From an uncultured Gammaproteobacteria bacterium (GTDB lineage: Bacteria > Patescibacteriota > Patescibacteriia > Magasanikbacterales > GWA2-37-8): DNA of 64,000 nucleotides. Where the stretch lies: assembly GCA_964496095.1 (NCBI GenBank), contig CAZBWU010000005.1, positions 19,704 through 83,703 of the forward strand. Direction: 5' to 3'. Both the position numbers and the translations under genes were made by a program. Below are positions 5,002 to 54,410 of the stretch, piece after piece. Position 1 is the stretch's first letter. The number at the start of each line of letters is the position of its first letter. The notes beneath the pieces were generated by a model that saw only the letters and a list, made by a program, of their open reading frames with translations, did not search any database and was not told where the DNA came from.

Positions 5002-6084
5002 TTATTCGTCATCGTCTTCTGCACCAGCGCTATCAAAGCCTTCGGCTTCAGCCTTGCGAACAGCTTCAATGATTGGTTCCAATTCGCCATTTAAAATTCT
5101 AGGAATACTGTTCCAGTTCTGGTGGATACGATGATCAGTGATGCGATCCTGAGGGAAATTATAAGTACGGATTTTTTCACTGCGATCGCCAGTACCGATC
5201 TGAGATCTGCGTTTTTCAGTAATTGCTTTCATTTTTTCTTCACGTTCGGCTGCGTAGATACGGGCGCGAAGCACGGCCATGGCTTTTTCTTTGTTCGCAG
5301 CTTGAGAGCGTTCGTCTTGGCACTGAACCATTATGTTTGTTGGAATATGGATAATACGCACAGCCGAGTAGGTAGTGTTAACACTTTGACCACCGGCGCC
5401 ACCAGCACAGAAGGTGTCAATGCGTAAATCTTTAGCTTCAATTTTTATTTCAGTTTCTTCGATTTCTGGAAGTACGGCCACGGTAATAGTGGAAGTATGA
5501 ATACGTCCGGCTTTTTCGGTGTCAGGCACTCTTTGGACTCTGTGCACACCCATTTCGTATTTGAGATCTTTGTAAACATTTTTACCTTTGATAGAAAAAA
5601 TAACTTCTTTAAAACCGCCGATACCAATACGGTTAACATCAAGCATTTCGGTTTTCCAACGTCTATTTTCAGCGTAGTGGCAATACATGCGATATACTTC
5701 GGCTGCAAACAAAGCGGATTCATCTCCGCCCACACCGGCTCTGATTTCCATAATCACACTTTTTTTATCAAATGGATCTTGGGGTCTAGTCATTTCGTCT
5801 AGTTCTTTTTCAAGTGATGCTTTTTTGGTTTCCAAATCCGGTAGTTCGGCTTTGGCCATTTCTTTCATTTGTTCGTCTGTTTCATTATCTATAATTGACT
5901 GAGTTTCTGACAGGGCTTTTTCTATTGTGGCTAGTTCATTAATTTTTTCAGCTACGGGCTTGAGTTCGGTATATTCTTGAGATATCTCCTTTATTTTTTT
6001 AGGGTCATTAAGCACAGCCGGATTTTGTAAATCAGCTTCAAGTTGCTGGAATCTATTTTGAGCGTCTATGTATTTTTTTTGCAT
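5002..6084 (-). CDS. prfA: peptide chain release factor 1 with an acidic C-terminal tail
   Basis: GGQSVNTT motif. RF1-type P-x-T tripeptide (PDT) in RVQRVPDTE. Confidence 0.9.
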
Positions 6085-6097
6085 ATTTTTTTGTTAT

Positions 6098-6195
6098 CCC
6101 CTCCTTTCCAAGGAGGGGTAGGGGTGGTTTGCCGAAGTCGCAGTAACGGCAACCACCCCGACCATAAATGGTCGCCCCTCCTTGGAAAGGAGGGG
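6098..6195. repeat. compound palindromic element (four nested hairpins) between rpmE and prfA
   Basis: CCCCTCCTTTCCAAGGAGGGG ... GGGGTGGTTTGCCG/CGGCAACCACCCC ... GACCATAAATGGTC ... CCCCTCCTTGGAAAGGAGGGG. The two end hairpins are exact reverse complements of each other. Confidence 0.6.
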
Positions 6196-6282
6196 ATGCC
6201 GGACAGCTCCCCATTTATACAACTTATTAAAAAAACAGACTAAATCAAAAGTATTATAGTCTGTTTTTAGAAATTTTTATAG

Positions 6283-6579
6283 CTAAGCCTTTTTGTCAGC
6301 AGCTTTCTTTGCAGATTTTTTGTCAGCCGCTCTAGCCTTTTTTACTTTTTGGCCTTTGCGAACAGCAGCCGCGCCTGTTTGTTTGTCAGTGCGTTCTTGG
6401 AATTTCTCTACACGTCTAGCTGTGTCAACAAACTTTTGTTTGCCGGTATAAAAAGGATGACACTTGTTGCAAAGTTCCACGCGGATGGTTTTGAGGGTAC
6501 TTCCAGTGATAAATTTGTTACCACAAGCACAGATTACTTCTGTATCATTGTTATATTGTGGGTGGATATCTTTCTGCAT
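6283..6579 (-). CDS. rpmE: 50S ribosomal protein L31 with a lysine/alanine-rich C-terminal extension
   Basis: MQKDIHPQY...CxC...[10 protein letters not shown] zinc-ribbon L31 signature. Confidence 0.85.
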
Positions 6580-6631
6580 AAGTTTGAAAAAAGTTTTAAT
6601 AATGGTATTATGTTAGCATAATATTTAAAGA

Positions 6632-7237
6632 ATGTCAACTATGAATACCTATAAACGAGATATTGAGTTTCTGTTTGAAGTTGGCTCGATGCGTAATATG
6701 CAAAGAGGTTGGCGACAGCACCTGGCTATGGATTGTGCTAATGACTTAGAGCATACTTATAGAGTCCTTTGGCTAGCCCTAATCATTGCTCGTCATGAAG
6801 GCGTTTCTAATGAGGAAAAAATAATGAAAATGGCTTTAGTTCATGATGTGGCGGAAACCAGGGTAAGCGATTTGAGCTATGTACAGAAAGTTTATGTTGA
6901 GGCTGATGAAAAACGAGCTGGTTTCGATATGTTTCAGGCCACATGTTTAGAGGATTTGTTTAGTAGTACACTTCTCGATTATGAGAAGCGTGATTCAATT
7001 GAAGCAAAAATTGTAAAAGATGCTGATAATTTAGATATTGATTTTGAGTTAAAAGAAATGGCTGAACGTGGCTCAAAGCTACCAGAAAAATGGCAAGGAT
7101 TTAGAGAAATGATAAGAAAGGAAAAACTATATACAGATTCGGCCAAAGAATTGTGGGATTTATTACAGAAAGTTGATGTGGCTGATTGGCATATGACTGC
7201 CAATAAATGGATAAAAATCCCTAAGGCAGGACTTTAA
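6632..7237 (+). CDS. HD-domain phosphohydrolase
   Basis: H...HD motif (ALVHDVAETRVSD), YfbR-like 5'-nucleotidase fold. Confidence 0.65.
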   Translation: MSTMNTYKRDIEFLFEVGSMRNMQRGWRQHLAMDCANDLEHTYRVLWLALIIARHEGVSNEEKIMKMALVHDVAETRVSDLSYVQKVYVEADEKRAGFDMFQATCLEDLFSSTLLDYEKRDSIEAKIVKDADNLDIDFELKEMAERGSKLPEKWQGFREMIRKEKLYTDSAKELWDLLQKVDVADWHMTANKWIKIPKAGL

Positions 7238-7357
7238 CTATTGACTAATCTCGGTCATTCCTATATAATCCACCCATCTTAATTAACTCTCGCCAGCTAT
7301 CTTTTTCCTCCCTTGGACCACTCCGGGGCAAGGCTGGGAGGCAATAATAAGGAAAAT

Positions 7358-8173
7358 ATGTCTAGAAAAATGCCAACATTGTTGGAAATGTTGAAGGCCG
7401 GTGTTCATTTCGGCCATCAAAAATCACGCTGGCACCCCAAGATGGAACAGTTCATCTTTGGTGTTCGCAACGGAGTTCACATTATCGACTTAGAAAAAAC
7501 TCAAGCTCAACTTGAGAAAGCTTTGGATTATACTCGTAACTTGGCCAGCAAAGGTCAGGTAATTTTATTTGTGGGCACAAAACGTCAAGCTCGCGAAGCC
7601 ATCAAAGAAGCTGCTCTATCCTGCGAAATGCCATATTTGGTAGAACGCTGGATTGGTGGACTTCTCACAAACTTCGAAGAAGTAAAACGTCGTTTGAAGA
7701 AATATAAAAATTTGAAAGAACAATTTGCTAGCGGAGAAATTGAGAAGTATACTAAGAAAGAGCAAGTTGTCATGAAAAAACAATTAGAAAAGTTAGATAA
7801 ATATCTTATCGGTTTAACTGCTTTGGAAAGATTGCCAGACGCAGTCTATATTGCCGATATGAGAACCGAAAAAACCGCTTTGGCTGAAACAGAAAGAACT
7901 GAAGTGCCAACCGTAGCTGTTTGCGATACCAACACCAACCCAAATAAAGTTAACTACCCAATTCCTGCTAATGATGATGCGGTTAACTCTATCAAATTGA
8001 TTGCCGACCTTATGGCCGAAGCAGTCAACGAAGGTAGAAAAGAATTTGAAAAGAAAAAACTTGAGAAAGCTAAAGAAGAACCAGCTGTAAAACAAAAAGC
8101 TGCTCAAGAAAAAGAAGAAGCTCCTGCTAGTTCTACAACTAGAAGAGCTCTTAAAAAAGATACTTCTATTTAA
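7358..8173 (+). CDS. rpsB: 30S ribosomal protein S2
   Basis: MLKAGVHFGHQKSRWHPKM... conserved S2 N-terminus. Start chosen at the internal ATG (the ORF track starts at 7313). Confidence 0.9.
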   Translation: MSRKMPTLLEMLKAGVHFGHQKSRWHPKMEQFIFGVRNGVHIIDLEKTQAQLEKALDYTRNLASKGQVILFVGTKRQAREAIKEAALSCEMPYLVERWIGGLLTNFEEVKRRLKKYKNLKEQFASGEIEKYTKKEQVVMKKQLEKLDKYLIGLTALERLPDAVYIADMRTEKTALAETERTEVPTVAVCDTNTNPNKVNYPIPANDDAVNSIKLIADLMAEAVNEGRKEFEKKKLEKAKEEPAVKQKAAQEKEEAPASSTTRRALKKDTSI

Positions 8174-21958: not shown

Positions 21959-23536
21959 ATGTCTTATAAACCAGTTGTGCTTGCAATTATGGATGGTTGG
22001 GGAGTAGCGCCAGACTCAGATGGTAATGCCATTACCAAAGCCAGCACACCCAACTTCACCAAGTTTGTTAAAAACTATCCCACCATGACGCTTCATGCTT
22101 CAGGCAATGAGGTGGGTTTGTTATTTGGCGAGATGGGAAACTCGGAAGTTGGACACTTAAATATTGGCGCTGGCCGAGTCTATTATCAAAGTTGTCCGAG
22201 AATTAACATGGCTATTGCTGATGGTAGCTTTTTTGAAAACTCAGCTTTGCTTTCAGCGATAGAAAAAGTAAAAAAAAATAATTCTAGTTTACATTTAGTT
22301 GGATTGATCGGTTCGGGTAATGTGCATGCTAGTAGCGATCATCTTTATGCCTTGCTGGCGTTCTGTAAAAAACAAAATTTAAGCAAAAATGTTTTTATTC
22401 ATGCTATTTTGGATGGGCGTGATGCCTTGTATAATTCCGGTCGTGATTTTGTTTTAGAATTGCAACAAAAAATGACTGAATTAAAAGTTGGTCAGATTGC
22501 ATCTTTGTCTGGTCGTTATTATGCGATGGATAGAGATAATCGTTGGGATAGAGTAGAGAAAGCCTACAGAGCCATTGCCGAGGGTAAGGCCGATAGATAT
22601 AGCGACAATCCTATCCAAGCGATAGACCAATCTTACGAGCAAAAAAATTACGATGAAGAATTTATCCCGACCGTTATTACAAATAAAGACAAGCCTCTAG
22701 CCACTATTGTTGGTCAGGATGCTGTGATTGTCTTTAACTTTCGACCAGATCGCGCGCGTGAATTAACCCAAGCTTTTTCAGTGCCGTCTTTTAATAAATT
22801 TCCTGCTACTTATTTAAAAGATTTATCGGTAGTGACGATGACCGAGTATGCCAAAGATTTGCCAGTGTCAGTCGCTTTTGCGCCGATTGTGGTGCATAAT
22901 TCTTTGGCCGAAGTTATTAGTAAGGCTGGCCTTAAACAAATGCATATTGCCGAAACTGAAAAATACGCTCACGTCACTTTTTTCTTGAATGGCACAGTCG
23001 AAGAACCTTTTGTGGGAGAAGATAGAAAACTCGTGCCATCGCCACGTGTTTCTAGTTATGACCAGCTACCGGAAATGTCTGCATTAGAAATCACCAAAGA
23101 AGCCAAAAAAATAATCGATAGCGGTAAATACGATTTTATAGTTTTAAATTTTGCTAATCCTGATATGGTAGCTCACACCGGCAATTTGACCGCGGGTATC
23201 AAGGCGTGTGAAGTGACTGATAAATGTTTGGGAGAGTTGGCAGATCATACGCTTGCGCAAAATGGTGTGATGCTTGTGACTGCCGACCATGGCAATGCCG
23301 AAGAAATGGCCAATTTGCAAACCACGGAAATGGATAAAGAACACTCAACTAATCCTGTGCCTCTTATTATTGTGGGCAAAGATTTTATGGGGCAAGCTGG
23401 GCTGTCGGGTGATGCGCCTGAAGACGACTTAAGTCTCATTCAGCCAGTGGGAGTGCTTGCAGATGTGGCACCGACAATTTTGAAGCTTTTAGATATTCCA
23501 CAGCCGGAAGATATGACTGGACAGGCTTTGATTTAG
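21959..23536 (+). CDS. gpmI: 2,3-bisphosphoglycerate-independent phosphoglycerate mutase, paralog 2 (tandem duplicate)
   Basis: The same motif set (DGWG, GNSEVGHLN, LDGRD, ADHGN, MVAHTG). Roughly 40% identical to paralog 1 by eye. Confidence 0.8.
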   Translation: MSYKPVVLAIMDGWGVAPDSDGNAITKASTPNFTKFVKNYPTMTLHASGNEVGLLFGEMGNSEVGHLNIGAGRVYYQSCPRINMAIADGSFFENSALLSAIEKVKKNNSSLHLVGLIGSGNVHASSDHLYALLAFCKKQNLSKNVFIHAILDGRDALYNSGRDFVLELQQKMTELKVGQIASLSGRYYAMDRDNRWDRVEKAYRAIAEGKADRYSDNPIQAIDQSYEQKNYDEEFIPTVITNKDKPLATIVGQDAVIVFNFRPDRARELTQAFSVPSFNKFPATYLKDLSVVTMTEYAKDLPVSVAFAPIVVHNSLAEVISKAGLKQMHIAETEKYAHVTFFLNGTVEEPFVGEDRKLVPSPRVSSYDQLPEMSALEITKEAKKIIDSGKYDFIVLNFANPDMVAHTGNLTAGIKACEVTDKCLGELADHTLAQNGVMLVTADHGNAEEMANLQTTEMDKEHSTNPVPLIIVGKDFMGQAGLSGDAPEDDLSLIQPVGVLADVAPTILKLLDIPQPEDMTGQALI

Positions 23537-24681
23537 AGGGAAGCGCCTAATGTTTTTTTAATTTTTCCAATAACTTCAGTTTCAACTTCTTTAATATTTT
23601 TTCCACTTATTACAAAAGAAGCAGTTTTTTTGTTGCCTTCTGGTTGGTAGCCTTGAAGAAGTGCTTTGGCATCATGCTGTTTGCCGGCGCATAAAAATCC
23701 ATGGATTTTATTTTCTCCATGAGTATTTTCGTAGAGTAATAGTACGATTTTTGCTTCCGGTGAATTTTGGATAAGTTCATCAGTAAGATCTTTCAGTTCC
23801 TCTTCGGTAGCGCCAGCTCTGGCAAAATCTTCTCTAGTAATTGTTGTCCAAACGAGTCCTAGCTGTGGATCGTTTTCAATATGAGTCAGCGCTGTGCCCC
23901 AAATACGCATCGAAGCAACCGATTTGGTGCGGTATAAATTTTTGACGATTCTTTCTCTGTCTGCGCCAAGCGTTATTAGTTTGCTGGCAGTGGCGAGTGT
24001 GGTAGGGCTGACATTAGCAGTTTTGAAACTTTGAGTTTGGCTAATCATGCCGGTAAGTAAGAATGTGGCGATGTCAGCATCAATATCAGGTTCGGAAATT
24101 TTTACCATTGCCTTGTAGATGATTTCGGAAATAGAAGTGGCGTTAAGTTCCACAAAATTTACTTGGCCAAAATGTTCGTTGGCTGGGTGGCTATCAAAAT
24201 TGATAACCGGAACTTTGTAAAACAAGTCGGTGTTATTAAAAAAAACATTGCCCAAAGATTCTAAATCTTGAGCGTTAACGGTAATAATCAAATCGTATTT
24301 GAGACCAGACTGAGCCGTGCGGAGTTCATTCTTGGTGATAGTACCTTGCTTGGGAGTGAGGTAAATTGAAAGCCAGTTGTCTTTGATGTCATAACTAAGT
24401 GTATCAATTTTGATATTACTGACATCAACTTTGAGAATGAATTTTTGTAAGTGAGAAAGTTGTGGTTGGATTTCTTCTAGATTTTTGAGGAAGCGGAGAT
24501 TTTTTGGCACAACAAAATTATCAGCAACGACATCAACTTGCTTATGTTTTTTTTCCAGGAATTTCTTCCAGGCCATGGCTCCACAAACTGAATCTGCGTT
24601 TTGGTTGGCGCTTAGTACCAATAAAACATGCCGACTCTGTTCCAAGAGATGGTTGAGTTGTTCGGTTTCGGTAAATGACAT
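23533..24681 (-). CDS. DHH/DHHA1-family phosphoesterase-like protein with degenerate catalytic motifs
   Basis: Collinear with the NrnA at 55195-56157. Motif I is NQNADSV instead of HQNPDGD, motif III is DSHP instead of DHH, and the GGGH region is degenerate. Confidence 0.5.
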   Translation of the reverse strand: MSFTETEQLNHLLEQSRHVLLVLSANQNADSVCGAMAWKKFLEKKHKQVDVVADNFVVPKNLRFLKNLEEIQPQLSHLQKFILKVDVSNIKIDTLSYDIKDNWLSIYLTPKQGTITKNELRTAQSGLKYDLIITVNAQDLESLGNVFFNNTDLFYKVPVINFDSHPANEHFGQVNFVELNATSISEIIYKAMVKISEPDIDADIATFLLTGMISQTQSFKTANVSPTTLATASKLITLGADRERIVKNLYRTKSVASMRIWGTALTHIENDPQLGLVWTTITREDFARAGATEEELKDLTDELIQNSPEAKIVLLLYENTHGENKIHGFLCAGKQHDAKALLQGYQPEGNKKTASFVISGKNIKEVETEVIGKIKKTLGASL

Positions 24682-24857
24682 GAATTTTGACTTGTTCTGT
24701 TAGACAGCTAAAAAATCTGAATAACAGCCTATATTAGCAGTATTTTAAAGGTTTGTCAAATATAGATAGGCAGCCATTTAAAGATGATATTTTCGTCTAA
24801 AAACTCGAACGCCCCGGCTTGTGGCCGGGGCTTCGAGCGTTGTCGTTGCCCCTTCAA

Positions 24858-25283
24858 CTACGGCGGCGGGGATGACCACAGGTCATCCCCAGTTATCGGG
24901 TCCTTCTCCCCGCTCGGGAAGTAGAGGATCTTGCCTGACTTCTCCTCCCGACCACGCCTGGAAGGGAGGGGGCGGAAGATTTCTTGCCGCCCGTGGAGCC
25001 ACTTGCCCGACGGGCAAAGTAGCCCAACGGCAGGACCATTGCAGTTCCCCCGTCGGCTTGTGTCCTCCTTCCCGTCAGGCCCGACCCACTCGCTTCTGCA
25101 GTTGCAGTAGCAGGTGGAGGGCGGGCCGCAGGGCGGCGACAGTACCGGCTCGTGGTCGCGGTGCTTGAAGACGACGATCTCGGTGGGGTTGGCAAGGGCC
25201 TTCTCCTTCGTGGTGTGGCAGTCGTGGACCACCACGCCGACAGTCAGAAGAATAGCCCCGACGATGGCGATGATTTCTTTCAT
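24858..25283 (-). CDS. small Cys-rich protein with an N-terminal signal anchor, encoded in a GC-rich island
   Basis: Only frame in the island with an ATG, a hydrophobic N-terminus (MKEIIAIVGAILLTVGVVV) and a downstream hairpin terminator (GCCCCGGCTTGTGGCCGGGGC at 24808-24832). Frame choice is uncertain because high GC yields long ORFs in several frames. Confidence 0.35.
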   Translation of the reverse strand: MKEIIAIVGAILLTVGVVVHDCHTTKEKALANPTEIVVFKHRDHEPVLSPPCGPPSTCYCNCRSEWVGPDGKEDTSRRGNCNGPAVGLLCPSGKWLHGRQEIFRPLPSRRGREEKSGKILYFPSGEKDPITGDDLWSSPPP

Positions 25284-25664
25284 TGTATCTAGCCTTCCCG
25301 CCTATTGGTGGAGGTGTGAGACACCAACAGGCGTATCAAAAATCGTTAAAATTTCTAATACGCATGTTGATGTCTTTCGCTACCTTTTAACAACGCTCTT
25401 TTGAAATGGGTATCTGCCTATTATATTAGGCTTATTACCACTTTCTCAATCGCCTATATGCCGTAAGCATAAAGACGATTGTTAAAAACAGTAAAATTTG
25501 TTAGTTAATTCAAGACTTTATCATCTTATACGGGATTTGTCAATCTTCTCCTTTTCTGTTATTATTTATCTAAATCTATAACATTTATAGGGGCCTTGCC
25601 CATATAATCTCATTTGCTCGAAAATGTCTCGACAAGTCAGACATTTTACTCACTCATTTCGATT

Positions 25665-28259
25665 ATGCACGAACTACCAAAGGTTTACGAACCTCACAAT
25701 TACGAAGATGAAATCTATAAAAAATGGGAAGAATCAGGGCTTTTTAACCCTGATGTTTGTGTTGAGAAAGGTTTTACCAAAAGTGACGCTGAGCCATTTT
25801 CTATTGTCTTGCCTCCGCCAAACGTCACAGGTACTTTGCATATGGGTCATGCCGCCATGCTGGCCATTGAAGACGTGATGGTGCGCTACCATCGGATGAA
25901 AGGCGACAGGACGCTCTGGGTGCCTGGTACTGACCATGCGGCTATTGCAACTCAGTCTAAGGTAGAAAAATTGGTCATGGAGAAAGAAGGTAAAAGTAAA
26001 TATGATTTGGGCAGGTCCGAATTTCTCAAACGAGTAGAAAAATTTGCTCAGGAAAGTCATGACACAATAGTTAATCAATGTAAAAAAATGGGTGCTTCTT
26101 TGGATTGGAGTCGAGAAGCCTATACGCTGGATGAAAAAAGAAATTTGGCTGTCCGCACCGTGTTTAAAAAAATGTATGATGACGGACTGATTTATCGTGG
26201 ACACAGAATTGTAAACTGGGATCCAAAAGGTCAGACTGTAATTTCGGATGACGAATTAGTTTATGAAGAAAGAAAAGCAAAATTTTATACTTTTAAGTAT
26301 GGTCCTTTTGAAATAGGCACTGCTAGACCGGAAACAAAATTTGGCGATAAGTATGTGGTCATGCATCCAGAGGACAAACGTTATAAAAAATGGAAGCACA
26401 TGCAAAAAATAACTGTCGAGTGGATTAACGGTCCGATTGAGGCGACTGTTATTAAAGACCCAATGATTGATATGGAATTTGGGACGGGTGTGATGACCAT
26501 TACTCCTTGGCATTCCCATGAAGATTTTGCCTTGGCTGAAAAATATAAATTAGACAAAGAACAAATTATTGATAAATCTGGAAAGTTGCTTGAAGTCGCG
26601 CAAGAATTTGCGGGGATGGAAATCGGCAAAGCGCGGGACAAGATAGTACAAAAATTAAACGCCAAAGGCCTGCTTGTCTCAGTTGATGAAAATTATGTAA
26701 ATCGGATTGCGACGGCTGAAAGAACTGGTGGAGTTATTGAGCCACAGATAATGGAACAATGGTTTATAAATGTAAATAAGCCGATTGAAGCTCGGGATGG
26801 AAAAACTTTGAAAGAGTTGATGCAAGATGTGGTAAAAAATAAACAAATAGAAATAGTTCCTGATCGATTTGAAAAAACTTATTTTCATTGGATAGATAAT
26901 TTGCGAGATTGGTGTATTAGCCGCCAGATTTGGTTTGGGCATCGGATTCCGGTTTGGTATAAAGGTGAAGAGATTCATGCTGGTATTGAACCACCAACTG
27001 GTGAGGGTTGGACTCAAGACTCAGACACTCTAGATACTTGGTTTAGTGCTGGACTTTGGACATTCTCTACTTTAGGTTATCCCGATCTTAACGCCGAAGA
27101 TTTGAAAAAGTACCATCCAACTTCTGTGCTTGAAACCGGTTATGATATTTTATTTTTCTGGGTAGCGAGAATGATTCTAATGACTACTTACACTCTTGGT
27201 GAAGTGCCGTTTAAGACGGTTTACTTGCACGGACTTGTACGTGATGAGCAGGGGAGAAAGATGAGCAAGTCTTTGGATAATATTATCAATCCGCTTGATA
27301 TGATTGCTAAGTATGGCACAGATGCGACGCGTTTGTCGTTGCTCTTGGGCAATACGCCGGGCAATGATATGAAATTATCCGAAGAAAAAATTGCCGGCTT
27401 TAGAAACTTTACCAATAAGCTTTGGAATATTTCGAGGTTTATTTTATCTCAGGTAGATGATAAAGAGCCAGTTATGACAATGGCCGATTCTTGGATTGTA
27501 GGCAGGATGGCGAAGTCGTTCGGAGAGTTCAGAGAAAGCATGGAAAAGAATCAGTTTTCAGTCGCAGGAGAAAGCCTACGTGATTTTACCTGGAATGATT
27601 TAGCGGATTGGTATTTGGAAATTTCCAAGATTGAAGGAAATAAGTCAGGAGTTTTAATGCTTATTTTAGATTTTATTTTAAAAGCATGGCATCCGTTTAT
27701 GCCTTTTGTGACTGAGGCTATCTGGCAAGAAATACATGAGGGTGGAAAAATGCTCATGGTAGAAAATTTTAAAATTTCAGAAGGCCTTTTGGAAGCATCT
27801 CCTAAAAAAACCTCAGTAAAAAACGAAGAAACAGCTTGGTTAGATTTCGAAGTTGTGCGAAACGCGGTAGTTGCTATCAGATCTTTGCGCGCCGAATATA
27901 AAATAGAACCTGTTAAAAAAATCACGGTAAAAATTAATTTTGGAAAACAGGAGAGCATAATAAGAGAAAACGAACATATAATTAAAGGATTAGCTCGTTT
28001 AGAAAAAATAGAATTTGTAGAGTCTGGCGCAGAAATTTCTTTGGATTTGACTGGTGCAATAGATGTAGAAAAAGAAAAACCAAGGCTAGAAAAAGAAATA
28101 GCTGAAATTAAAAAATATGTTTCTGGTTTGGAAAATAAATTATCCAATCAAGAATTTGTCACCAATGCCCCTCCAGCAGTAGTGGAAAAAGAAAAGGCAA
28201 AGTTGAGTGAAGCACAGGGGAAGTTGGAAAAGTTACAAGAACAATTAAATAAGATGTAA
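25665..28259 (+). CDS. valS: valyl-tRNA synthetase
   Basis: PPPNVTGTLHMGHA (HIGH) and KMSKS. Editing domain and C-terminal coiled coil. Start at the internal ATG. Confidence 0.9.
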   Translation: MHELPKVYEPHNYEDEIYKKWEESGLFNPDVCVEKGFTKSDAEPFSIVLPPPNVTGTLHMGHAAMLAIEDVMVRYHRMKGDRTLWVPGTDHAAIATQSKVEKLVMEKEGKSKYDLGRSEFLKRVEKFAQESHDTIVNQCKKMGASLDWSREAYTLDEKRNLAVRTVFKKMYDDGLIYRGHRIVNWDPKGQTVISDDELVYEERKAKFYTFKYGPFEIGTARPETKFGDKYVVMHPEDKRYKKWKHMQKITVEWINGPIEATVIKDPMIDMEFGTGVMTITPWHSHEDFALAEKYKLDKEQIIDKSGKLLEVAQEFAGMEIGKARDKIVQKLNAKGLLVSVDENYVNRIATAERTGGVIEPQIMEQWFINVNKPIEARDGKTLKELMQDVVKNKQIEIVPDRFEKTYFHWIDNLRDWCISRQIWFGHRIPVWYKGEEIHAGIEPPTGEGWTQDSDTLDTWFSAGLWTFSTLGYPDLNAEDLKKYHPTSVLETGYDILFFWVARMILMTTYTLGEVPFKTVYLHGLVRDEQGRKMSKSLDNIINPLDMIAKYGTDATRLSLLLGNTPGNDMKLSEEKIAGFRNFTNKLWNISRFILSQVDDKEPVMTMADSWIVGRMAKSFGEFRESMEKNQFSVAGESLRDFTWNDLADWYLEISKIEGNKSGVLMLILDFILKAWHPFMPFVTEAIWQEIHEGGKMLMVENFKISEGLLEASPKKTSVKNEETAWLDFEVVRNAVVAIRSLRAEYKIEPVKKITVKINFGKQESIIRENEHIIKGLARLEKIEFVESGAEISLDLTGAIDVEKEKPRLEKEIAEIKKYVSGLENKLSNQEFVTNAPPAVVEKEKAKLSEAQGKLEKLQEQLNKM

Positions 28260-32123: not shown

Positions 32124-32220
32124 TACTTTCATATTGGCTGCATGTTTGTTCTCGCCAAATTTTGGTTGTGAGCAGTGCAAGCCACGAATATAAACAATCT
32201 CAAAGAAAAAGAGGTGTGGC

Positions 32221-33235
32221 TATGGACGCCTTGAAGATCTGGTTCTGGAATAAGGGACGGCAGTTTGGTTTGATTCTGCTGGAATTTCTCTGGAAGTTGG
32301 TTGTCCGGTTTTTTTATCAGCCGGATTTCATTTTCCTGGTCTACGGCCAGTTGCGCCACAAGCGCGCTTGCTGGTCTGAGAGAACGGAGAAGCGTATCGG
32401 TCTCTGTGGTTTGATCAGCTTCATCAGATGGAAGAAGGACGGTGTTCGGTTTCGTGGTTTGGTGATAGCTTCCACGGTGAGTATGGAAGAATTTAGCGAG
32501 CGACCCGAACTCGCTTTGAGAGTTGTTGAAGAAGTGAAAAAGCGCTTTCCTAAGGTGAAGGCAATTGCTTTGGCCGGGCAGCTTCCTGGATGGATTGCTC
32601 GTGCATCGGGACAAGCCCCAGTCACACCTTGTGTTGGTGGAAGTCTTGGAACTTGCTTTGCTGTAGGGCGGGCGGTATTTGAACTCTCTTCTTCTTTGAG
32701 GGGTGTGTCGGATCAACATGTTGTTGTGGTGGGTGGAGCTGGTCATACCGGTTCTCAGGTGGTTGAGGTCTTGTCGGTCGCAAATCGATTTAGAATCACT
32801 GCCTTTGATCGCCGTTTGTCAGAAAATGTCACAGGCAATGTTCGTCAAACCAGTGACCCTGTTTGTTTGGAGAGCGCCTCTCTAGTGGTGGTGCTTACTG
32901 CCCAAGGAGATGAAGTTAGATCTCTTGTTCCAAACATTAGGCGGGGAACGATTGTTGCTGATGACACGCACCCCATGATTGGTTCGCGCGTGCGCAAGGC
33001 GCTTTTTGACCAGGGTGCAAAGCTCGCCAAGATCACGATGACTGCAAATCCCTCCTTGAGGATGTTTCCGCGTCTTCCCGACTTCAAGTCGGATGATATT
33101 CCCGGGTGCCTTCTTGAGGCTTTGGTGGTTTCTGTGAGGGGGCGTGAAGTTCTCTCTAGCCAGTCAAGATTTGATGCGGAAGCTGAGCGTTTGGGGTTCA
33201 AGCCTAAGTTGGGGGATCACCCAACGTATTCGTAG
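32221..33235 (+). CDS. NAD(P)-binding Rossmann-fold protein of unknown function in a moderately GC-enriched segment
   Basis: AAGAGG Shine-Dalgarno before ATG 32221 (ORF track starts at TTG 32162). VVVVGGAGHTGSQVV GxGxxG dinucleotide-binding motif. Local GC is clearly above the flanks. Confidence 0.45.
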
Positions 33236-36257: not shown

Positions 36258-36911
36258 ATGAAACCGCAGGGAAAGGTAAAAATAAAATGGTCGCCAGAGT
36301 TCGCATATGCAATAGGGTTAATTACATCGGATGGTAGTTTATCAAAAGACGGCAGGCATATATCATTTGTTTCAAAAGATATAGAAATGATAAAAAATTT
36401 TCAGAGAAGCTTGGATTTTTCATGTAAAGTTGGTAAAAAATCGAGCGGTTCAAATAAGAATAAAATTTACAAATTTGTTCAGATAGGCGATGTAAGTTTT
36501 TATAATTTTCTTATTTCAATAGGTTTAATGCCTAATAAAAGCAAGGTAGTAGGAAGTGTCAAAGTTCCAAAAAAATATTTTTTTCATTTTTTAAGAGGTT
36601 GTTTTGATGGAGACGGGAGTTTTTATTCTTATTATGATAAACGATGGAAGTCTAGTTTAATGTTTTATGTAAGCCTTGCCTCAGCAAGTAAAACACATAT
36701 TTTGTGGTTAAGGGCCGAAATTTTAAAGAGATTAAAAATTAAAGGGCATATAGCAAAGAGCTTGCAAAGTTCTGCTTATCAGCTAAGATATGCAAAACAA
36801 GAGTCCCTTAAATTATTGTCTAGTTTATATTTAGATGATACAGTTAGCCTGTCTAGAAAGAAGTTAAAAATACTGAAAGTTATAAAAAGTAAAAAAGCGC
36901 GGGTGGTGTAA
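36258..36911 (+). CDS. LAGLIDADG-family homing endonuclease (two-motif, single-chain type), free-standing
   Basis: Two LAGLIDADG motifs about 100 aa apart: YAIGLITSDGSL and FLRGCFDGDGSF. The last 15 nt overlap the 5' end of tRNA-Leu. Confidence 0.8.
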   Translation: MKPQGKVKIKWSPEFAYAIGLITSDGSLSKDGRHISFVSKDIEMIKNFQRSLDFSCKVGKKSSGSNKNKIYKFVQIGDVSFYNFLISIGLMPNKSKVVGSVKVPKKYFFHFLRGCFDGDGSFYSYYDKRWKSSLMFYVSLASASKTHILWLRAEILKRLKIKGHIAKSLQSSAYQLRYAKQESLKLLSSLYLDDTVSLSRKKLKILKVIKSKKARVV

Positions 36912-36979
36912 TGGTAGCCACGCAGCCTTGAGGTGGCTGTGCCCGCAAGGGCATGGAGGTTCAAGTCCTCTCCCGCGCA
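36897..36979 (+). tRNA. tRNA-Leu (anticodon GAG), class II with a long variable arm; CCA not encoded
   Basis: Acceptor stem GCGCGGG/CCCGCGC. Anticodon stem CAGCC/GGCTG with loop TTGAGGT. 15-nt variable arm. T-loop TTCAAGT. Discriminator A. Confidence 0.85.
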
Positions 36980-37073
36980 CTAGTTAAATATCGAATTGTG
37001 GTTTGATATTTTATAATTTATAGAATTTTCTAAATTTTATAAATAATCTTCAGGTTATTTTGTGAAATAATTT

Positions 37074-53260: not shown

Positions 53261-53900
53261 GAAAAAAATCCACCCCCACCTCAGTAAAGAGATGGGGGTG
53301 GTTTAATTTTATTGGAGGAAAGAAACTTCCCTCCTGAACCGCACCCAAGAAGATGTATTAAAGATGAAAACGAGCCGAAGCCTGTTTGTCCCTCTAACAC
53401 ATCTCCATGCTTGTCGTGGATACGGGATGATACATGTTAGTCTTACTAGTAACTCTATCATGCACTACCCGTTTCCAGACTTGCTAATGTGCGCTTGTGT
53501 CTAATTATTAAAGTATTGTATTTTTGCCTCGTAGTAGTACCGTTTTAGGGGTTCATAACTCTTGTGGCGACTTTGCTTTTTAGACAACTGCGAATTATAC
53601 TATAAATTAATAAATTTGTCAAGGGTATGGAGGGGATAAGACCATTTTTTTGGCTAATTTAAGCGGAAATAGTACTAAAGAATATTATTGACAAAGCTTA
53701 ATTTTTATGACATACTCTGTTATTCGATAATTAAGCGAATAAATAGCTCTTTAAAATTCGATATGGTTCTTCGGTGCGAATAGAGCTTCGTTTATCATTT
53801 GAATATGGTAGTAGGAGTTCTATTCGCACTATAATTACAATCTCTCCTCGGGTATGCCGAAGAGGGATCTCACCCGAATTGAAAAACTGGAGGAGGTCGT

Positions 53901-54224
53901 ATGAGCAACAAGGAAGGGCCGCCTAAAGGGTGGAAAGAGGGTGTCTTCGAGCAAATCGATGCCGAGGAGGAAGATGATGCGCTGGATCGATGGGACAGAG
54001 GCCTGCCGCTTACAGCAGCACAAGAGGCCATTGTCCAGCGGTATAGGACTATGGTGCACAGGATGAGAAGTCTCCCCCCTGTGGAACCGCCTGTTGGATG
54101 GGAGGCGCGCGCTCGCGCCCGGTTCCGCAACGCTCGTGCCCGCGAGCGCCGCCGCATGCTGGCCGTGTGCGCTGTTCTCGTCTTCATCGCCGTTGCGGCG
54201 GCATTCGTGGTGGTCGGCCGTTAG
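53901..54224 (+). CDS. small tail-anchored membrane protein encoded in a GC-rich island
   Basis: GGAGGAGG Shine-Dalgarno 4 nt upstream. Acidic N-terminal domain, an RARARFRNARARERRR basic stretch, then C-terminal TM MLAVCAVLVFIAVAAAFVVVG. GC-rich codon usage unlike neighbouring genes. Confidence 0.4.
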   Translation: MSNKEGPPKGWKEGVFEQIDAEEEDDALDRWDRGLPLTAAQEAIVQRYRTMVHRMRSLPPVEPPVGWEARARARFRNARARERRRMLAVCAVLVFIAVAAAFVVVGR

Positions 54225-54377
54225 ATCGTCGTCACGACGGGAATCGGAGAATCATGTCCACGCTGGGCCACCACGGTCGTGAGATCGAGCTGGCCTGCGT
54301 CCGAAGAGGCGTTGCACTTGCTCAGTGCGCGCCTCACTCCGAATATTTTTTGTACTTTGTAAAAAAGATTGAGGAAT

Positions 54378-54410
54378 AAAAAACTATCCTTCTGTGGATA
54401 GTTTTTTATT
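54378..54410. terminator. bidirectional rho-independent terminator between the GC island and clpP
   Basis: AAAAAACTATCC-TTCTGT-GGATAGTTTTTT. Confidence 0.6.

Follow-up and report, generated by a model that had tools for sequence, protein, structure and literature searches.

A GC-rich island beside valS in a Candidatus Magasanikbacteria genome: the probable cargo of a strain-variable expression cassette

What is a GC-rich stretch of about half a kilobase doing in the intergenic DNA of an AT-rich bacterium? The question arose in a 64,000-nt stretch of contig CAZBWU010000005.1 (assembly GCA_964496095.1, positions 19,704 to 83,703), hereafter the window, from a genome that relatives of its valS place in Candidatus Magasanikbacteria (candidate phyla radiation, CPR/Patescibacteria). 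The stretch in question, island 1, lies in a 983-nt spacer whose divergent neighbours are a gene for a DHH phosphoesterase (23533-24681, minus strand) and valS (ATG at 25665, plus strand). An earlier note, made from the letters of the window alone, had described it as a terminator-bounded single gene of foreign composition encoding a small, Cys-rich, membrane-anchored protein, and had paired it with a second GC-rich island further along (island 2, window 53675-54400) as signs of a recurring acquisition route. Here we argue that the island is probably the cargo part of a self-contained expression cassette, one that varies between strains and occupies a hotspot for insertions in the DHH-valS spacer. 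Our best reading of the locus is a hypervariable, moron-like cassette for small surface-anchored proteins, headed by a new cis-regulatory leader. What makes it interesting is not foreignness per se but that, in a CPR genome, one conserved front-end for expression is combined with orphan cargos that can be interchanged. CPR bacteria are ultra-small, and many are thought to be episymbionts that attach to their hosts by way of surface proteins. To our knowledge, almost nothing is known about surface variation and gene regulation in the CPR, and very few regulatory RNAs have been described in the phylum.

The island and its reading frame

The GC profile of island 1 has sharp borders, rising at ~24800 and falling at ~25315, with 63% GC at 24800-25300 against 0.33-0.42 in the flanks and a mean of ~39% over the whole window, which bears out the description of a GC-rich island in an AT-rich context. 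On its minus strand lies an open reading frame (ORF) of 141 codons that opens with ATG, 24858..25283. GC contents at its first, second and third codon positions (GC1/2/3) are 0.60/0.50/0.80, compared with a GC3 of ~0.35 in host genes, and the order GC3 > GC1 > GC2 was seen in that frame only. The phase contrast of the ORF was 0.303 against 0.069 ± 0.036 in shuffled sequence (z = 6.4; 0/5000 shuffles). A length of 141 codons is by itself unremarkable for the composition of the island (p ~0.11 in shuffles), and other frames are also open (ORFs of 115, 100 and 96 aa), so the ambiguity of gene calling foreseen for the island was real. Because of the strong three-base GC periodicity, we read the island as a coding region with a history of GC-rich pressure. 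In AT-rich genomes such islands are frequently RNA genes, and a structured RNA gene was considered for the GC-rich part; it was rejected on the codon periodicity and on Rfam matches at chance level only. At gathering thresholds, Rfam returned for the whole window only the 16S rRNA at its end, with nothing on the island or its leader, and a permissive search (E up to 10) of the island and of the equivalent locus L008 in a relative gave chance-level matches only. ARAGORN found one unrelated tRNA-Leu in the window (36897-36980).

The 141-aa product has seven Cys residues (at 22, 52, 58, 60, 62, 81 and 90), including the motifs CYCNC, CGPP and CNGP, and the maximum of its hydropathy profile (KD19 = 2.34) falls at residues 4-22, with no other hydrophobic window. 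The N-terminal anchor and Cys-rich body that had been claimed for it are thus both present, and the check for a transmembrane (TM) segment gave one N-terminal hydrophobic helix. No AxA or L-x-x-C (signal-peptidase/lipobox) motif was seen by eye, and the protein fits a predicted signal-anchored (type II) membrane protein with a single N-terminal helix. An AlphaFold model from the single sequence had a pLDDT of 36 and was uninformative past that helix. The GC profile places the start of the GC-rich cargo module ~30 nt 5' of the start codon.

Could the island be an artefact of assembly, as the earlier note had allowed? The Logan assembly SRR10036080 matches the island and the DHH gene base for base, and the NCBI assembly GCA_013565595.1 carries the same sequence with one single-nucleotide polymorphism; the sole variant (in L002) changes CGC to CGG and is synonymous in the 24858..25283 frame. 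Since independent assemblies give the same island-DHH junction, an assembly chimera is excluded.

In both of these other assemblies (L001 and L002), the public gene callers picked another frame over the island. Their calls (L001 3-449, L002 3-152) are out of frame with the periodicity-supported ORF, and the L001 call reads through in-frame TGA codons, as under an alternative genetic code. An exact look-up of the 141-aa ORF in protein collections returned no record, and we attribute its absence from these collections to the different frame used by the callers. If this is true of other such cassettes, protein databases would miss most genes of this class. Searches by similarity were equally negative: no relative of the 141-aa ORF was found in a word-indexed search of 5.8 billion clusters or in an exhaustive phmmer search of 1.84 billion representatives, and there was no match in back-translated scans of GTDB species genomes, IMG/VR and JGI metagenomes, or in tblastn against six-frame-translated phages and plasmids. 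Pfam, PHROGs and PADLOC gave nothing significant. A homologue of the Cys-rich protein in high-GC bacteria, for which a search had been suggested, appeared in none of the databases searched; of the claim of foreign composition, the atypical composition stands and the origin in a high-GC bacterium is not shown.

Filled and empty sites between the DHH gene and valS

Members of the lineage keep the gene order iPGM, DHH (minus strand), valS (plus strand), and the content of the DHH-valS spacer varies among relatives. In the closest one (DHH protein 97% identical; L083 and L084, two ENA assemblies) the spacer measures ~118 nt and holds the DHH promoter only, and similarly short spacers (107-146 nt) were found in L003, L004, L009, L038 and L086. 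Other relatives are filled: one with 93% DHH identity (the P0002 contig) has one unit with a 151-aa ORF, L085 (83% DHH identity) has one island, and L008 (82% DHH identity) has two tandem islands, L008A and L008B, which peak at 68-69% GC in 300-nt windows. One short unit each is present in L071 (also L087 and L088) and in L089 (also L090). Because relatives are empty, singly filled or doubly filled, the DHH-valS spacer is an insertion hotspot holding 0, 1 or 2 units. The predicted DHH promoter of the window, at the DHH-side edge of the insertion, is kept at the empty sites, where it aligns with the sole promoter in the L084, L003 and L004 spacers. Empty spacers carry neither the cassette promoter nor the leader sequence, and because of this absence we assign promoter and leader to the cassette and not to local spacer DNA. 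The full unit of the window occupies ~24795-25545 on the minus strand (~750 nt) and includes the AT-rich promoter and leader 5' of the ORF; the limit of 25290 that had been set for the island was therefore too short.

The same AT-rich promoter-leader stands upstream of the window ORF and of the GC-rich ORFs of L008A, L008B and L085. The cargos themselves are mutually unrelated: BLASTP between them gave E values ≥ 1.3, and in local DNA scores against codon shuffles the cargos reached z values of -1 to 3.3, whereas the leaders reached 6 to 92. These local scores and codon-shuffle controls replaced global-alignment cargo identities, which were discarded for GC bias and gaps. Between L008A and L085, leaders were 83% and DHH genes 85% identical (first 300 nt) beside different cargos, both figures coming from the same gapped alignment whose cargo values were discarded as GC-biased. 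Similar leaders and DHH genes next to differing cargos argue that cargo was replaced while the flanks evolved at a normal rate. Similarity across cassettes stops just past the last leader hairpin (P2), ~25-35 nt before the start codon, and restarts at the U-tract of the terminator; because it breaks at these points, we take the exchanged GC-rich module to comprise the ribosome-binding site, the ORF, the 3' untranslated region (UTR) and the stem of the terminator.

Unrelated as they are, all cargos have one TM helix near the N-terminus, mostly after Arg/Lys (L085 and L089 read from the sequence), and a Pro- and/or Cys-rich tail follows the helix in the L008A, L008B and window cargos. Their GC3 is 0.72-0.92 (computed for the window, L008A, L008B and L071), and most are 115-152 aa long, the L071/L089 cargo being 48-63 aa with a charged tail. 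No family matches were found for the L008A, L008B and L085 cargos (PHROGs, Pfam, PADLOC), and the L085 cargo matched itself only in the search of 5.8 billion clusters. The locus is thus a compact hotspot at which close strains have none, one or two different small surface-anchored orphans, and it poses a compositional puzzle, in that host-like control regions are fused to cargo of 63-69% GC that lacks relatives among billions of proteins.

Promoter, leader and terminator of the cassette

The predicted features of the cassette are collected in Table 1. The ATTGACAAAT box of the cassette promoter aligns in 4/4 closely related cassettes, where it is followed by 17 nt and TAnAnT, and the promoter stands back-to-back with a valS promoter-like site on the plus strand (25537-25565). 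From it a 5' UTR of ~225 nt is predicted, AT-rich and folding into a covarying structure of three hairpins; in order after the promoter these are P0, the strand GAUUGAGAAnGUGGUA, P1, the strand ACCCAnUUCAAAAGAGCGUUGUU and the long P2. The hairpin at 25300-25335, on the 5' side of the island, is part of this structured leader and not a terminator. The description of a terminator-bounded single-gene unit accordingly stands for the single gene and its 3' terminator, and fails for the 5' hairpin. The second promoter-like site listed in the table may serve as an alternative promoter, or the motif may resemble one by chance; a -10-like hexamer is present in the P1 loop of three copies, L008A and L008B among them (sequences read). 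Because P0 and P1 covary, we take transcription to start from the upstream promoter at 25543 and not from the look-alike at 25449.

A covariance model of the leader, R1, was built from four copies (window, L008A, L008B and L085). Its score at the window copy, 161.6 bits, is circular, since that copy was among the four used for training. R1 also found two independent diverged copies, in L071 (also L087 and L088) and L089 (also L090), with E values of ~1e-9 to 1e-10. This brings the leader to six copies in all, each in the DHH-valS spacer and directly 5' of a small ORF, and no R1 leader was found elsewhere in the ~0.6 Mb searched, the surroundings of island 2 included. In a five-copy alignment, 92.3% of cells were paired, compared with 34-41% when partners were slid, and compensatory double changes occurred in 16/50 leader pairs, values that 0/500 shuffles reached; this alignment was fitted to the R1 model, which favours the structure. 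RNAalifold on a plain MAFFT alignment of the leaders already gave 15 compensated pairs. On this comparative evidence the leader is a predicted conserved structured RNA and a new motif outside the families of Rfam 15. It would add a well-supported structured RNA to a phylum poor in known ones. An exact degenerate pattern of the leader motif, perhaps too strict, had no match in JGI metagenomes or IMG/VR.

At the other end of the unit, the perfect hairpin that had been noticed downstream of the ORF is the core of an intrinsic terminator, GCCCCGGC-TTGTG-GCCGGGGC at 24811-24831, which extends to 24804-24837 with one bulge and has a folding energy of -32.7 kcal/mol (z = -5.4; 0/200 shuffles equally stable). 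Between stop codon and terminator, each of the otherwise unrelated GC-rich modules has an element resembling CAACAACG, and this element is complementary to the invariant GAGCGUUGUU of the leader (in the window over 9 bp, 25398-25390 with 24843-24835). Complementarity of 6-10 bp between the two ends was present in 5/5 cassettes tested. L071 and L089 have AAACGCUG in the leader and CAGCGUUU in the 3' element, a compensatory change. The GCGUU strand of the leader also pairs inside the leader, with the AACGU of the GAGAACGUGG strand. Since GCGUU pairs with either the leader AACGU or the 3' element, the two pairings are mutually exclusive, which suggests a possible switch.

Table 1. Predicted features of the island 1 cassette and its DHH-side edge (window coordinates)
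Feature	Position	Strand	Description
Cassette promoter, predicted, sigma-70-like	25515..25543	-	-35 TTGACA(AAT), 17-nt spacer with TG, -10 TAAAGT; 10/12 consensus
Structured 5' leader, predicted	25316..25492	-	~180 nt; hairpins P0, P1 and long P2; invariant strands GAGAAnGUGGUA and ACCCAUUUCAAAAGAGCGUUGUU
Second promoter-like site	25420..25449	-	TTGAGA, 18 nt, TATAAT; 11/12 consensus; inside conserved motif/P1 loop
Leader element GAGCGUUGU	25390..25398	-	Inverted repeat I5, 9 nt, 100% complementary to 24835-24843
Shine-Dalgarno-like GGGAAGG	25293..25299	-	9 nt 5' of ATG; read from sequence
Cargo ORF	24858..25283	-	ATG, 141 aa; TM helix at residues ~4-22; Pro/Gly/Cys-rich tail
3'-UTR element ACAACGCUC	24835..24843	-	Family consensus CAACAACG; overlaps foot of terminator stem
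Terminator, intrinsic	24799..24837	-	14-bp GC-rich stem, one bulge, loop CACAA, then UUUUU
DHH-gene promoter, predicted	24731..24759	-	TTGACA, 17 nt, TAATAT; DHH-side edge of insertion

Two further readings of motifs near the cassette were rejected. The TTGACA(AA) boxes on either side of island 1 are not a target-site duplication, as the same box heads unrelated promoters: a TTGACAAA box also heads an unrelated promoter adjacent to island 2, and the flanking boxes look like the extended -35/promoter consensus of the host. A T-box reading of the GUGGUA motif beside valS was dismissed, as the strand of the motif is the wrong one and Rfam gave no T-box match.

Rival readings, proposed mechanism and neighbouring variation

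One competing account is an ordinary one-off horizontal transfer of a small gene (a 'moron') from an unsampled high-GC donor or phage, with the AT-rich upstream sequence being local intergenic DNA. Horizontal transfer is common in Patescibacteria (PMC12455944), the GC1/2/3 values fit a gene that evolved in a genome of ~63-68% GC, composition changes abruptly at the borders, and the window and relatives also hold GC-rich single ORFs that lack this leader, island 2 among them. What makes this account unlikely in our view is that six cassettes with differing cargo have homologous promoters and leaders, both of which are absent from empty sites, that the 3' element is conserved within otherwise unrelated GC-rich modules, and that no donor homologue was found among 15 billion proteins (window cargo) or 5.8 billion clusters (L085 cargo). 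A host-like promoter and leader common to unrelated cargos argue against a simple transfer of the whole unit in one event. The locus does resemble phage morons in being a single ORF with its own predicted promoter and terminator, of deviant composition and present or absent between syntenic genomes, and morons, too, often carry genes for small membrane or surface proteins. Unlike morons, island 1 sits between the chromosomal DHH and valS genes, only its cargo is deviant (promoter and leader are host-like), and different cargos of its type have a common structured leader; no PHROG match and no phage or IMG/VR match places island 1 in a phage setting. Replacement-type flexible genomic islands, with their conserved flanks, non-homologous cores, fixed position and empty and filled alleles among close relatives, also offer a likeness in pattern, although such islands are multi-gene clusters and the unit here is one gene of ~0.5 kb, with cargos that are all orphan and GC-rich. 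A further account, which we hold to be most improbable, is a structured non-coding RNA gene or an assembly chimera with a high-GC contaminant. The frequent identity of GC-rich islands as RNA genes, the several open frames, an ORF length that is not significant alone and public callers that skipped the 141-aa ORF would all suit it. The strong three-base periodicity would be unexpected of an RNA gene, for which there was no Rfam match even in the permissive search, and against a chimera, three data sets give both junctions of the unit in independent assemblies, and several unrelated projects yielded the corresponding cassettes of relatives.

Two further known systems share parts of the architecture. 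In a type I toxin-antitoxin module of the hok kind, the cargo would be a toxic membrane protein whose mRNA is kept inert by its 5' UTR and a fold-back of its 3' end, and the cassette would persist as a selfish or defensive element; we think this account unlikely. The hok mechanism involves an fbi-tac interaction between the ends of the mRNA, which the conserved complementarity of leader and 3' element recalls. Further points of agreement are the stand-alone promoter-ORF-terminator form of the cassette, its presence or absence at an intergenic hotspot, the length, conservation and structure of its 5' UTR and the single TM helix of every cargo; the L071/L089 cargo (48-63 aa, charged tail) is also of suitable size. 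Known type I toxins are mostly below 60 aa and belong to conserved families. The window protein has 141 aa, however, and most cargos (115-152 aa) have long Pro/Cys-rich ectodomains, are unrelated to one another, in contrast to conserved toxin families, and show no homology to known toxins (no PADLOC or Pfam toxin match). No antisense RNA gene was detected either: a consensus scan of 25284-25500, which is weak evidence, gave no sigma-70-like promoter on the plus strand, and inspection by eye of the plus strand of the window, L008A and L085 copies gave no common antisense promoter. An integron-like array (CALIN, cluster of attC sites lacking integron-integrase) would instead make the conserved elements attC-like sites and have the cargo captured by an integrase encoded elsewhere. 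Zero to two unrelated single-ORF cassettes of heterogeneous composition at one fixed site (in tandem in L008), covarying hairpin elements between cargos and the short inverted repeats GCGTTGTT and AACAACGC either side of each cargo are all integron-like. Yet RYYYAAC/GTTRRRY cores in register were not seen by eye at four 3' ends and the leaders, the conserved element stands 5' of each ORF with none after the last, and that element carries a promoter and, with ~230 nt and three hairpins, resembles a 5' UTR more than an attC site (57-141 nt). The 3' hairpins are plain terminators with U-runs, one per cassette. In the closest relative (L083, L084) the Pfam annotation has no integrase up to 6 kb away from the locus; around the DHH gene, neither an integrase nor a recombinase is annotated up to a distance of 5 kb (L083, L084, L085) or 4 kb (L086, L087, L089). 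Such an array is very unlikely here. Riboswitch-type leaders, finally, are like the leader of island 1 in their invariant junction strands, covarying helices and the placement of one RNA class before unrelated ORFs; they differ in that the island 1 leader has no Rfam match, is confined to one spacer of one CPR lineage and has no recognised ligand or expression platform.

Returning to the strain-variable cassette, we propose that the ORF would be translated into a single-pass protein with its N-terminus in and its C-terminus out (predicted topology), and that its Cys/Pro-rich ectodomain, with six Cys outside the membrane, would probably be disulfide-bonded and displayed on the cell surface. The leader would act as a cis-regulatory RNA setting translation or mRNA stability, possibly through a switch in which its GCGUUGUU strand pairs either with its own AACGU or with the CAACAACG element of the 3' UTR. 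Recombination, most plausibly following the uptake of DNA, would move cargo from strain to strain, with the leader and the DHH promoter and gene serving as homology arms, and strains might benefit from specific small surface proteins in host attachment or in the avoidance of phages or competitors. Our confidence in these steps decreases from translation and topology through the cis-acting leader and recombinational cargo exchange to the surface-variation pay-off.

Several points weigh against this proposal. Promoter, start site, topology and leader role are all predictions from sequence. The covariation of the leader comes from six related copies in one lineage. Per cassette, the duplex between leader and 3' element is modest against shuffles (p = 0.006-0.14; ~0.002 in a Fisher combination of these values), and minimum-free-energy folds show no consistent masking of the ribosome-binding site across copies, an inconsistency on which sequestration of that site by the leader was rejected. 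In the one orthologous cargo pair, L071/L089, we counted 7 synonymous against 8 non-synonymous codon changes, which would indicate moderate constraint at best, or weak constraint; the pair retains its TM helix. Recombinational swapping is read from the mosaic pattern. No donor was found for any cargo, and the capture of foreign genes is a possible origin of the GC-rich composition. Unsampled high-GC donors fit the GC1/2/3 pattern and sit poorly with the total lack of relatives and with the host-like control regions. A bolder view, which we offer as speculative and unlikely, is that leader, CAACAACG element and hairpin form a new CPR platform for gene capture and expression, into which small GC-rich membrane-protein genes are inserted precisely and swapped among strains; the genes might possibly come from the high-GC organisms on which episymbionts live, or from their viruses. 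If true, the platform would be integron-like without an integron integrase or attC sites.

The ORF of island 2 (53901..54224, plus strand) encodes an Arg-rich protein of 107 aa whose TM helix is C-terminal. A TTGACAAAG promoter of its own belongs to the island, as do an AT-rich leader of ~170 nt unrelated to R1 and a GC-rich 3' UTR of ~120 nt. Island 2 is a strain-level insertion/deletion: the ~726-nt segment is present in L091 and absent from L092 and L093 (95-98% identical), in which 27 nt separate the equivalents of window positions 53674 and 54401. Both islands are strain-variable, so the recurring route suggested for them is supported as gain and loss. GC-rich ORFs in or near the DHH-valS spacer of more distant Magasanikbacteria (L007 4064-4504; L057 3479-4264 and 11713-12300; GC3 up to 0.83) have neither the R1 leader nor a TM helix, and because they lack the leader we take GC-rich single-gene insertions to be broader than the R1 cassette family.

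The remainder of the locus is also variable. Beyond the cassette, the entire spacer differs between genomes with 97%-identical DHH proteins (84-90% at the DNA level). A valS 5' region of ~100 nt with the hairpin AAAATGTCTCGACAAGTCAGACATTTT (25575-25664, plus strand) is missing from the closest relative, in which valS starts 9 nt from a -10 box. On the other side of the DHH gene, which overlaps iPGM in the window, a 79% relative (L086, GCA_964734585.1) has a diversity-generating retroelement between the two genes (5155-7746), with an RVT_1 reverse transcriptase, a bAvd accessory protein and a 215-aa ORF, and in L089, L003 and L073 this position is taken by GC-enriched ORFs of 157-184 aa. Since the DHH-iPGM side varies too, the DHH gene has a hotspot on either side. 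The wider neighbourhood comprises enolase, two iPGM genes, DHH, valS, tyrS and argS, and beside argS lies a conserved gene of 343-357 aa (window 32162-33235, plus strand; L008 11829-12860; L071 12064-13104). Its GC content is 0.51-0.60 against 0.39-0.43 genomic in 3/3 genomes, its only matches are weak ones to Rossmann folds (XdhC_C, saccharopine dehydrogenase, epimerase), and it may be an older, fixed acquisition.

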